This document shows, one piece after another, positions 32,092 to 37,161 of a stretch of 37,161 nt of DNA (position 1 is the stretch's first letter; every line of letters begins with the position of its first letter). The stretch covers positions 1 through 37,161 of the forward strand of contig JAHHIK010000086.1 of the NCBI GenBank assembly GCA_019358935.1. The letters are read 5' to 3'. This DNA is from Tolypothrix carrinoi HA7290-LM1 (GTDB lineage: Bacteria > Cyanobacteriota > Cyanobacteriia > Cyanobacteriales > Nostocaceae). A model generated the notes under the pieces. It did no database searches, was not told the origin of the DNA, and saw only the letters and a list, made by a program, of their open reading frames with translations. The position numbers and the translations under genes are program-made.

Positions 32092-32479
32092 AGTTAAGAG
32101 TCAATAGTCAACAGTCAAGAGTCAAGAGTCAAGGATCAATTTTTAGACTAATGACTAAATGCTTACAATTGCTACTAGCTTACAACTGGGAAAGATTTTA
32201 AGTGTTGCCCTTTAACTAATCGCCTTCTTTTTCCTCCTGGGCGCAGCGCTATTGAGTTGTTAGTATGAAGTGGTTTCGCATTCATTTGATGGTAGTATTT
32301 CAATGGTCGATGACCCACCCACACGGCAGTCAACAAAGGTAACAGTAGCGGTACGACGCTTACCACGGTAACTATCGTGAGAAAAGGGGAATGGGTTTAC
32401 CCCCTGATTCTTGACAATCATGGTGAACCTCGTTAAAAAACAATATCTGCCGAGGGTGTGCAGGGCGGCTGCCTGTGGA

Positions 32480-32627
32480 ACGGCACATGCTTTAACGGGG
32501 GGAACCCCCCTTCGGGTTCGCTCCTTGCCGGCACGAGGGAAAACGCCACGTGCTTCAAGCCGGGGAACCCGTCCAACGCAGTGGCTCCCCTCCCTTTCTC
32601 GCTGGTCTCACCGCAACGCAGTGCCTC
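32480..32627 (+). repeat. Three-level nested small elements (45-nt > 58-nt > 45-nt)
   Basis: Outer 32480-32508 + 32612-32627; middle 32509-32542 + 32588-32611; inner 32543-32587. Confidence 0.75.
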
Positions 32628-32844
32628 CGCTGTGTAAGACCATCATCGTCTTGAGTGACGAATTCCTAGAAATAGGGATGCCTAACGTGGCAACGGCGGT
32701 TTATAAGTGAAACTCGCTCATACGAATAAGACCGTCCCTGATTTCAATGAGTTTTGGGAGAACCAAAATCGAGTGCGCGATCGCTTTGGGGTACTTCCAC
32801 GATATTCTATCTTTAGTATTTAGCTGTAAAAGTGAGAAGGAAAA

Positions 32845-33079: not shown

Positions 33080-33370
33080 CAGAGGGAGAGGGGGACAAGG
33101 GGACAAGGAGACAAGGAGGACAAGGGGAGGACACTTCTGTGCGGGGGTGGAGGAGTAAGGAACGTGTCCGTGGACAAGGAGGACAAGGAGGACAAGGAGG
33201 ACAAGGGGAGGACACTTCTGTGCGGGGGTGGAGGAGTAAGGAACGTGTCCGTGGACAAGGAGAAATTTCTTCCCCTGCTTCCCCCTCCCCCTTGTCTCCC
33301 TCCTCCCCCTTGTCCTCCCCCTCTCCTTGTCCCCCCCTCTCAAGAACTCTCCCCCTTCCCCCCATCTCCC
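33080..33370. repeat. GGACAAGG array containing two identical 45-nt elements (33127-33171, 33208-33252), followed by a C-rich complementary array
   Basis: 81-bp tandem duplication; minus strand of the unit reads ACGGACAC...GTGTCCTC. Confidence 0.85.
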
Positions 33371-34131: not shown

Positions 34132-34203
34132 GCGGGTATAGCTCAGTGGTAGAGCGTCACCTTGCCAAGGTGAATGTCGCGCGTTCGAATCGCGTTACCC
34201 GCT
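34132..34203 (+). tRNA. trnG: tRNA-Gly (GCC), CCA not encoded
   Basis: GCGGGTA/TACCCGC acceptor stem, TCACC-TTGCCAA-GGTGA anticodon arm, GTTCGAATC T-arm. Confidence 0.98.
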
Positions 34204-35611: not shown

Positions 35612-36060
35612 TTGACACTCTCCGCCCTAAAAGTGCGGAGATTCTTGCTTCATCCGTCCTCTCTAGATACCTAAATGCAGGCATTTAGACATCCCCGTTT
35701 GGATACGTCCACTCATAGTACACGGACTGCCCGACCGCGTTTGAAAAGGTTTATTCAATTTCTTGCTTTACTCCCACGTTTGTGAGCCACTGCGGTGAAG
35801 CAGTCCCCTCAGGAGCGGTTCCCGTCGATGGGGGACTGCTGAACCCGAAGGGTGGACGGGTTCCCCGGCATAAAGCAAGTGGCGTACAAGATTCAGGATT
35901 TTTACTACCAGGGTTCTGGATCAGGAGTTGTCCACTAGACCTACTTCGTTTTTTATGTGCGCTTTACCGCTATATTTCCATAGTCGCACAATACTGCGTT
36001 TTTGTCCCTAGTTTTTTAAAGTCGTCCTAGAAGGACGAGGCTTTAAACCCATTTTTTTCG
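35612..36060 (-). mobile_element. Non-autonomous IS200/IS605-family element (449 bp, no tnpA/tnpB)
   Basis: Minus strand: TTAC|CGAAAAAAATGGGTTTAAAGCCTCGTCCTTCTAGGACG left-end hairpin; right end GAAGCAAGAATCTCCGCACTTTTAGGGCGGAGAGTGTCAA ending in TCAA. Confidence 0.8.
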
Positions 36061-36122
36061 GTAAGAAGAATGCAAACTTCTGCAATCACGCACTTACCTT
36101 CTACAATCATGCACTTACAATT

Positions 36123-36674
36123 ATGCCATATTCTGCCAACAAAACTGTTTATAGTGTAACAGCTTGGACAAATAAACACGATGAATTCTGTCTAGAACAC
36201 GCTCTCACGCCATCCGCTAAACTCCTCTGGCAATGGCTTACATATGGCGGTGAAAACAAAGAATTAGAGCCTGACTTGCAAGATGAATTTAACAAGTGGG
36301 TAGCCGAGAAAAGGGGTAGACCTTACGACCCCAAGACAATAAAAACTGCCATCAAGCAATTAGATGACTGTGGTCTAGTCAATATAGTGCGTAAATTTAG
36401 TGTGAAAATATACATACTGTTTCTACGTCCCTTAGACTGGTTAACCCCCAGGAAAAAACCCCGATATTCAGAACAATTTTCCAATTTATCTACCTCAAAT
36501 GCTTGTGCAGCCGAAACGGGGGTTAACAACAACAACATTATTCTTTCTTCTGGTGATGGTGTTGAGGATAAGGAGTTGCAAAAACGGGCTGAGATAATCA
36601 GACTTTGCGAGCAGTACGGCTATAAAGATTATCCCAAGGCAATTTTTACTCTTTCAAACGCCAATACCTACTAA
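36123..36674 (+). CDS. Putative winged-helix DNA-binding protein of mobile-element type; C-terminus possibly truncated
   Basis: LTPSAKLLWQWL...YDPKTIKTAIKQLDDCGLV HTH-like pattern; last codons overlap the IS630 remnant. Confidence 0.6.
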   Translation: MPYSANKTVYSVTAWTNKHDEFCLEHALTPSAKLLWQWLTYGGENKELEPDLQDEFNKWVAEKRGRPYDPKTIKTAIKQLDDCGLVNIVRKFSVKIYILFLRPLDWLTPRKKPRYSEQFSNLSTSNACAAETGVNNNNIILSSGDGVEDKELQKRAEIIRLCEQYGYKDYPKAIFTLSNANTY

Positions 36675-37022
36675 CTCGTCTGCCAAAAGCTGCATTGTCC
36701 AACGAGTACGCCCCTCCAGAGGAGATGAACAAGCAGTAGCTATCAGAAATGCTTCTTGCTTACCATCGAGTTTGCGAGGCTTGGGTGGATGCGGCCTATC
36801 CTGAAGGGCAAAGTCTATGCCTCCAGTTACAAATTTCTGACGAGTGCGTTCGACAGTTGAGACGTTGACTTTAAGCGCTGAGGCGATCGCCTCATCTGTT
36901 TTAGCTTCACTTGCCCTTTCTGAGAATATAGGCGCGGGTGATTGTTCGCGCCTTACGCTTACCTGTTTTTATTAGCGACCGGAGTTGAGATTCCTCAACC
37001 TCACTCAAATCCACAATGTATT
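36654..37022 (-). pseudogene. IS630-family transposase N-terminal HTH fragment (frameshifted, truncated, intron-interrupted)
   Basis: YIVDLSEVEESQLRSLIKTGKRKARTITRAYIL, +1 frameshift near 36915, then ASEAKTDEAIASALKVNVSTVERTRQKF...LIATACSSPLEGRTRWTMQLLADELV. Confidence 0.85.
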
Positions 37023-37161
37023 GTTAGAGTCGATGGGTGGTATTATCCACCGCACCTCTCTGTTCGATCCGGACGTGCCCGTTTCCGTGCATCCGGCTCT
37101 CGATATTCTTAAGGGATAACCCTTTTGCCCATGTGTTGATAGTCGTGACAGGATTCGTGTA
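37023..37161 (-). mobile_element. 3' end of a group II intron (domains V and VI); the rest lies beyond the window
   Basis: DV GAGCCGGATGCACGGAAACGGGCACGTCCGGATC (37099-37066, AGC triad, GAAA loop); DVI with a bulged A before CTCTAAC; ends in AC. Confidence 0.92.
37109..37161 (-). CDS. C-terminus of the intron-encoded protein (HNH endonuclease tail), partial
   Basis: HESCHDYQHMGKRVIP* immediately upstream of domain V. Confidence 0.8.
   Translation of the reverse strand, partial: HESCHDYQHMGKRVIP

Follow-up and report, generated by a model that had tools for sequence, protein, structure and literature searches.

The 3' end of a group II intron next to a decayed IS630 element in Tolypothrix carrinoi HA7290-LM1

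The window ends in the 3' part of a group II intron that belongs to a common cyanobacterial lineage; this intron was quite probably reverse-spliced, a single time, into codon 4 of an IS630 element that was probably already frameshifted. Most likely, one mobile element landed in the wreck of another, as a one-off and ordinary event. The window is the whole stretch of DNA analyzed, namely the entire contig C86 (37,161 nt) of the Tolypothrix carrinoi HA7290-LM1 assembly (G000; 7.96 Mb, 184 contigs). As each contig is at least 10 kb long, repeats are under-counted in this assembly. The named homologues come from Nostocales-type cyanobacteria.

The intron 3' end and its lineage

Of the intron, the window contains no more than the 3'-terminal 139 nt (37023..37161, minus strand; the end of domain IV, domain V and domain VI), clipped by the contig end; the 5' boundary, EBS1 and RT ORF lie beyond it. 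The Rfam model RF00029 matched 37101-37023 (minus strand) over its full length, with 52.5 bits (gathering score 40) and E 1.1e-7. The stretch of domains V and VI was folded at -33.2 kcal/mol (z = -4.03), a value equaled by 0 of 200 shuffles. Domain V (34 nt; 37066..37099, minus strand; RF00029 and fold) carries an AGC triad and a GAAA tetraloop; within the triad, the G is opposite A, not U, a variant also present in the sister introns L004, L010, L013 and L017. Domain VI (37026..37061, minus strand) has a bulged branch-point A at 37030 (position -8) in the fold, and the intron terminates with AAC at 37023, an AY 3' end. This 3' end is in register with those of 13 complete relatives. The domains V and VI that the initial annotation had placed on the minus strand, ending at 37023, were therefore borne out by the Rfam match, the fold, the bulged A and the terminal AAC. 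The feature stands at a contig end and was present in one sample only, as an assembly artefact or a chance resemblance would be, but this explanation is extremely improbable against an Rfam E value of 1e-7, a folding z of -4 and a junction exactly at the canonical intron end; contigs of the sequencing run X1 (probably the same sample, so not independent) also break the IS at the same base.

The intron-encoded protein (IEP) is represented by its last 16 codons and stop (37109..37159, minus strand), the end of the En/HNH region, with the reading-frame tail HESCHDYQHMGKRVIP, in frame and intact. Among 120 listed proteins homologous to the C-terminus of the sister protein, 98 contained the motif HESCHD. 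The identical 16-residue tail ends 4 of these 98 proteins (RT-maturases, 325-528 aa), all 4 with RVT_1 and GIIM, which confirmed the earlier call of an IEP tail preceding domains V and VI. The label ‘HNH-bearing’ rests on relatives, as the last 70 aa of the sister protein on contig C51 matched Pfam HNH with E 0.004, below the curated cut-off.

G000 contains 23 RF00029 matches. The closest complete intron, C51:4505-2257 (L091; 2249 nt), is 85% identical to the window intron at the 3' end and encodes an open ORF of 525 aa with RVT_N, RVT_1, GIIM and a weak HNH match. Its protein is 76% identical to the intron protein of the PCC 7120 alpha plasmid and 34% identical to that of N.sp.I4, from which it is separated on 100/100 branches in the tree. 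The window intron belongs to a common cyanobacterial lineage with an RT-maturase-HNH protein of ~525 aa. The class of this lineage is likely CL2B/IIB2, as compared with the published description of CL2B: this class is described as having a short, En-bearing cyanobacterial protein (PMC8919778), which the C51 sister fits with its 525 aa and weak HNH match.

For targeting in relatives, 30 loci were fetched; 13 introns passed the filter as complete, and the other 17 loci, which were incomplete or unresolved, were left out. The EBS1 loop, ~320-330 nt into the relatives' introns, paired with its own 5' exon at 6/6 positions in 10 of the complete relatives and at 5/6 in 3, and among non-cognate EBS1/exon pairs (n = 156) there were 7 at 6/6 and 52 at 5/6. 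Each of the 13 is at a different site, and the lineage appears to retarget through EBS1. The fetched loci gave 43 distinct 3' ends of this lineage; 42 of them have non-IS630 exons, the window holding the sole IS630 one, and the +1 base is A at 29 of the 43.

Several side observations were made on the other introns of G000. The C51 intron splits a gene of TPR-like look and is 99% identical to a partial copy in genome G009. Its 5' region holds a dispersed repeat of ~45 nt with many matches across G000, and similar-looking repeats occur in the window; nothing was found in the G000 repeat matches or the window repeats that ties these small repeats to the intron RT, which the initial annotation had speculatively named as their candidate mobiliser. 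Nested arrangements were seen at C84:4738-1, where a tnpB element lies in a C51-type intron and in turn contains two introns, the first complete (605-aa frame) and the second present as its start, at C67:3173-1, a twintron-like decayed intron within a C51-type intron, and at C174:287-1, a twintron-like intron start within another intron's RT gene. The 3' ends of group II introns number 23 in G000; at least 8 of them directly precede a TnpB C-terminal domain (PF07282), and 3 more are tnpB-like by eye. Ends at or near tnpB were recorded at C151:342, C146:16758, C123:23135, C27:120, C66:48169, C84:346 and 116, C70:42092 and C125:126, and also at C65:48405, C93:103 and C31:411. Several intron lineages occupy fixed, conserved tnpB motifs, with one identical intron in at least 4 different tnpB genes. 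These tnpB sites are the recurrent IS-homing of G000, and arguably more interesting than the IS630 case.

The IS630 remnant and its surroundings

The 3' exon is an IS630 remnant (36657..37022, minus strand) of 366 of 1220 bp, which begins at base two of codon 4 in orfA and takes in the HTH region. Its reference was a complete intron-free IS630 element in genome G016 (1220 bp, with terminal inverted repeats), 97.3% identical to the window over these 366 bp. The alignment to this element starts at the first base 3' of the window intron, so that the intron 3' end falls between bases one and two of orfA codon 4, in sense orientation. Translation of the 3' flank gives YIVDL..., and 36657-36968 matched HTH_32 with E 5.6e-15. 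The G016 element has the features of IS630, i.e. an orfA (142 aa) with HTH_32, an orfB matching DDE_3 and terminal inverted repeats; its orfB carries a break of its own. Of these features the window retains part of orfA only. The initial annotation had described the first codons of an IS630 transposase in the same orientation, and the empty G016 allele now specifies these as codon 4 of orfA.

The right ~765 bp of the window IS630, with orfB/DDE and the right terminal repeat, are missing. In addition, a frameshift lesion lies in orfA at ~36914..36921 (minus strand; three-way alignment). With neither an intact transposase nor both ends, the element is a remnant; the earlier description of a frameshifted and truncated host copy thus held, with the frameshift at ~36921-36914 and the end at 36657. 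The same frameshift is present in a decayed intron-free allele of genome G195, which at two further sites agrees with the window and differs from G016. The orfA frameshift therefore likely predates the intron, as far as these alleles can date it. The G195 allele (L094, G195:C6) also gained three small insertions of ~29, 12 and 135 nt. As the host is frameshifted and has lost its DDE part, splicing could not yield a transposase, and the suggestion that transposase expression depends on splicing does not apply at this locus, the frameshift being common to an intron-free allele.

The remnant adjoins the 5' stump (183 aa) of a conserved hypothetical gene of ~295-308 aa (36123..36674, plus strand), from an unannotated cyanobacterial protein family, which is cut at the IS remnant; most of its 21 homologues are 294-310 aa long. 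The C-terminal half of this gene was not found in G000, and the stump protein had no Pfam match. Its Atlas neighbours were HTH_36/RepA_N at 0.94-0.95, and as a lead only, the gene is possibly one for a replication-initiator-like HTH protein. A tRNA-Gly(GCC) gene is located at 34132..34203 (plus strand), and the decayed segment with the IS and the intron comes after it, from which we infer an integrated island behind tRNA-Gly(GCC).

Small repeats were also noted in this part of the window. A stretch of 164 bp (35901-36064) is identical to C34:44904-45067 of G000, has shorter relatives elsewhere, and resembles the end of a small IS200/IS605-type element. GC-rich small dispersed repeats lie at 32479-32631 and 35784-35896 in opposite orientations, and an exact 72-nt duplication is part of a set of short tandem repeats at 33082-33339.

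Occupancy of the IS630 start and the missing 5' half

The orfA start is well conserved among IS630 relatives, which would offer plentiful targets to an intron whose EBS were tuned to it. Such dedicated retrohoming, in which the intron spreads among IS630 copies and its splicing limits the transposase, is unlikely in view of the survey of occupied and empty sites. It has a precedent in RmInt1, described inside ISRm2011-2 (PMC4496777; PMC4238363), and other introns of G000 recur at fixed tnpB motifs. Left-end matches numbered 134 across 71 genomes chosen for holding the IS family, and 58 of them, from 22 genomes, ran uninterrupted through the site; the remainder were mostly short terminal-repeat matches. 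Four left-end matches ending near the site were all inspected, and all were empty. G146:C355 stops 7 nt past the site and shows little more than that the site is empty there.

Junction patterns were mismatch-free and covered one genome per species, so that an occupied site in a further strain of a species would escape them. Among 389 family genomes, 7 had a match: G000 itself (IS630), 4 with sister introns elsewhere, and 2 by chance. One further match, also by chance, came from 401 phylum genomes. Hence no second occupied IS630 start was present in the 389 family or 401 phylum genomes at mismatch-free stringency, and the window was the only occupied one. The exact junction 17-mer had 9 matches in genome contigs, and a degenerate junction pattern had 12 in metagenome contigs, with no intron among either set. 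In a plasmid collection, 37 records matched, none with at least 80% query coverage, and the 30 listed matched either the IS or the intron part, never both.

Within G000, related IS630 copies on contigs C90 and C118 are empty at the site, and no other copy above about 75% identity was found in the assembly. Of 14 listed sequencing runs, 13 carry a small share of the window's words and X1 alone carries most (91% of the sampled words present). No RNA run was among those listed, which bears neither way on expression. X1 is a metagenome and probably the source sample, and it is consequently not independent support. Four of the 14 runs were aligned to the complete G016 element. In X1, a related IS630 contig (record 6, at ~3.5 times the depth) keeps the empty-allele spacing across the site, though it may derive from another organism given the metagenomic source. 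Over the remnant itself, X1 showed one contig depth and no empty near-identical allele. The initial annotation had pictured a retroelement homing to a multicopy IS; neither the multicopy state nor the homing was upheld, and the repeated occupation of one IS site that marks IS-homing of the RmInt1 type was absent from the genomes searched. That the window's own host IS630 is unable to make a transposase also speaks against retrohoming that limits the transposase.

The other half of the locus was searched in G000 and X1. The G000 contigs lacked both the IS left end and any intron 5' end behind an IS630 start. The intron 5' ends at contig ends (C24, C56, C84, C85, C145, C148, C166 and C174) each follow an exon that is not an IS630 start; C174, weighed as the partner, was rejected because its exon is another RT gene. 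In X1, record 7 covers the 3' exon at a depth of 536 and continues for another 42 letters towards the intron. The IS left end (L002 1955-1868, 1 difference, depth 486) is contained in record 8 to within 2 nt of the site, where 24 letters not fitting the IS follow. Binned X1 depth on the G016 element was 536.1 across the remnant and implied zero at 1866-1867, the two bases before the site. The uniform depth over the remnant and its loss at the site indicate that the IS subtype is single-copy and interrupted in X1, and an IS left end at matching depth whose alignment stops at the site supports a true insertion. The 2-nt offset of record 8 would be explained by the G195 exon variant.

These X1 contigs bear on the reading that only a 3' intron fragment or a recombinant is present, with a truncated or different element upstream and the IS630 start not joined to an intron 5' end. 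The missing 5' end in G000, the frequency of fragmented introns in that genome (C67, C84), the 3' fragments described in T. elongatus (PMC2882425) and the visible decay of the locus are in its favour, yet it is very unlikely, because the left end in X1, at matching depth, aligns up to 2 nt from the predicted site and no further, the contig break is explained by a repeat, and the protein tail is intact and in frame.

Distances from intron ends to nearby G000 contig ends gave further information on the repeat. With the shared exon prefix, they sum to 127 in 6 of 13 cases and to 126 in 2; the others did not fit. For C86, 139 = 127 + 12, and for the X1 contig, 42 = 30 + 12, where 30 assumes an assembly with 31-letter words. 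These sums suggest that the sample holds a second copy of the intron, differing at position -12. A second site with ~8 exon bases in common, possibly another IS630 start, would be compatible with the length of the X1 5'-exon contig (record 8). A second copy is a further point that favours retrohoming, which is set against the empty sites above.

Proposed course of events and known systems

In the preferred reading, a one-time landing in an already decayed IS630, the whole intron would be ~2.2 kb long and would encode an RT-maturase-HNH protein of ~525 aa, as expected from its relatives and from group IIB biology. A group IIB RNP is described as finding DNA by EBS1/2/3 pairing, reverse-splicing into it and being reverse-transcribed, and EBS drift as opening new targets, often IS elements (PMC2882425, PMC8643678). 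Here, EBS1 and EBS2 of the RNP would pair with the A-rich exon immediately ahead of the site, and EBS3 would pair with the +1 A; the intron would reverse-splice into the sense strand, and the RT would then copy it. Since EBS drift would alter the target of the lineage, the IS start is likely just one of the places in dispensable DNA where an insertion is tolerated, and not a dedicated homing site. The host segment would itself be dispensable, next to tRNA-Gly, and a deletion, earlier or later than the entry of the intron, may have taken the right part of the IS together with the neighbouring gene's end.

The natural target of RmInt1 of Sinorhizobium meliloti is ISRm2011-2, an IS630-family element (PMC4496777), and RmInt1 was proposed to limit ISRm2011-2 transposition through poor splicing (PMC4238363). 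Like the window intron, RmInt1 is a group II intron that lies within an IS630-family element and points in its sense direction (PMC4496777, PMC4238363, PMC4615759), and with this published case even the full reading of the initial annotation has a precedent. RmInt1 is described as lacking an endonuclease domain and as homing to ISRm2011-2, whereas the window lineage has an HNH-like tail; the window site is at orfA codon 4, the host is dead, and there was no recurrence in IS630 among the genomes searched. The intron of Nostoc sp. PCC 7120 plasmid pCC7120alpha (NC_003276, RT WP_044523747.1) is of the same lineage, with the same GTGCGATTCG start and an 80% identical 3' end, but sits in another intron's RT gene and not in IS630. 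The TeI introns of Thermosynechococcus elongatus, like this lineage, are described as retargeting by EBS divergence and landing in IS elements and other introns; they are IIB1, whose IS target is ISEL1 of the IS200 family (PMC2882425). N.sp.I4, a chloroplast-like cyanobacterial IIB2 intron (PMC8643678 Table S3), has a 5' start similar to this lineage, but its protein has ~590 aa and only 34% identity to the C51 protein. The supplement of PMC8643678 names no host genes for its cyanobacterial introns. The literature searched, mostly outside subscription journals, gave no account of a CL2-type intron sitting at an IS630 start.

A farther-reading proposal, which is unlikely, is that this endonuclease-bearing cyanobacterial intron retargeted to the IS630 orfA start codons, conserved across many IS630 copies in the family, with a second copy already there. 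It would borrow IS transcription behind the promoter and start codon, and would switch off the active copies it invaded. As it stands, the locus is a further example of a group II intron lodged in a decayed insertion sequence, and is a reminder that such introns break assemblies. If a recurrent homing site were true, it would be a second, independent pairing of an intron with IS630 beside RmInt1, at another position and with another intron class, and would provide a natural test of whether introns restrain the spread of IS elements.
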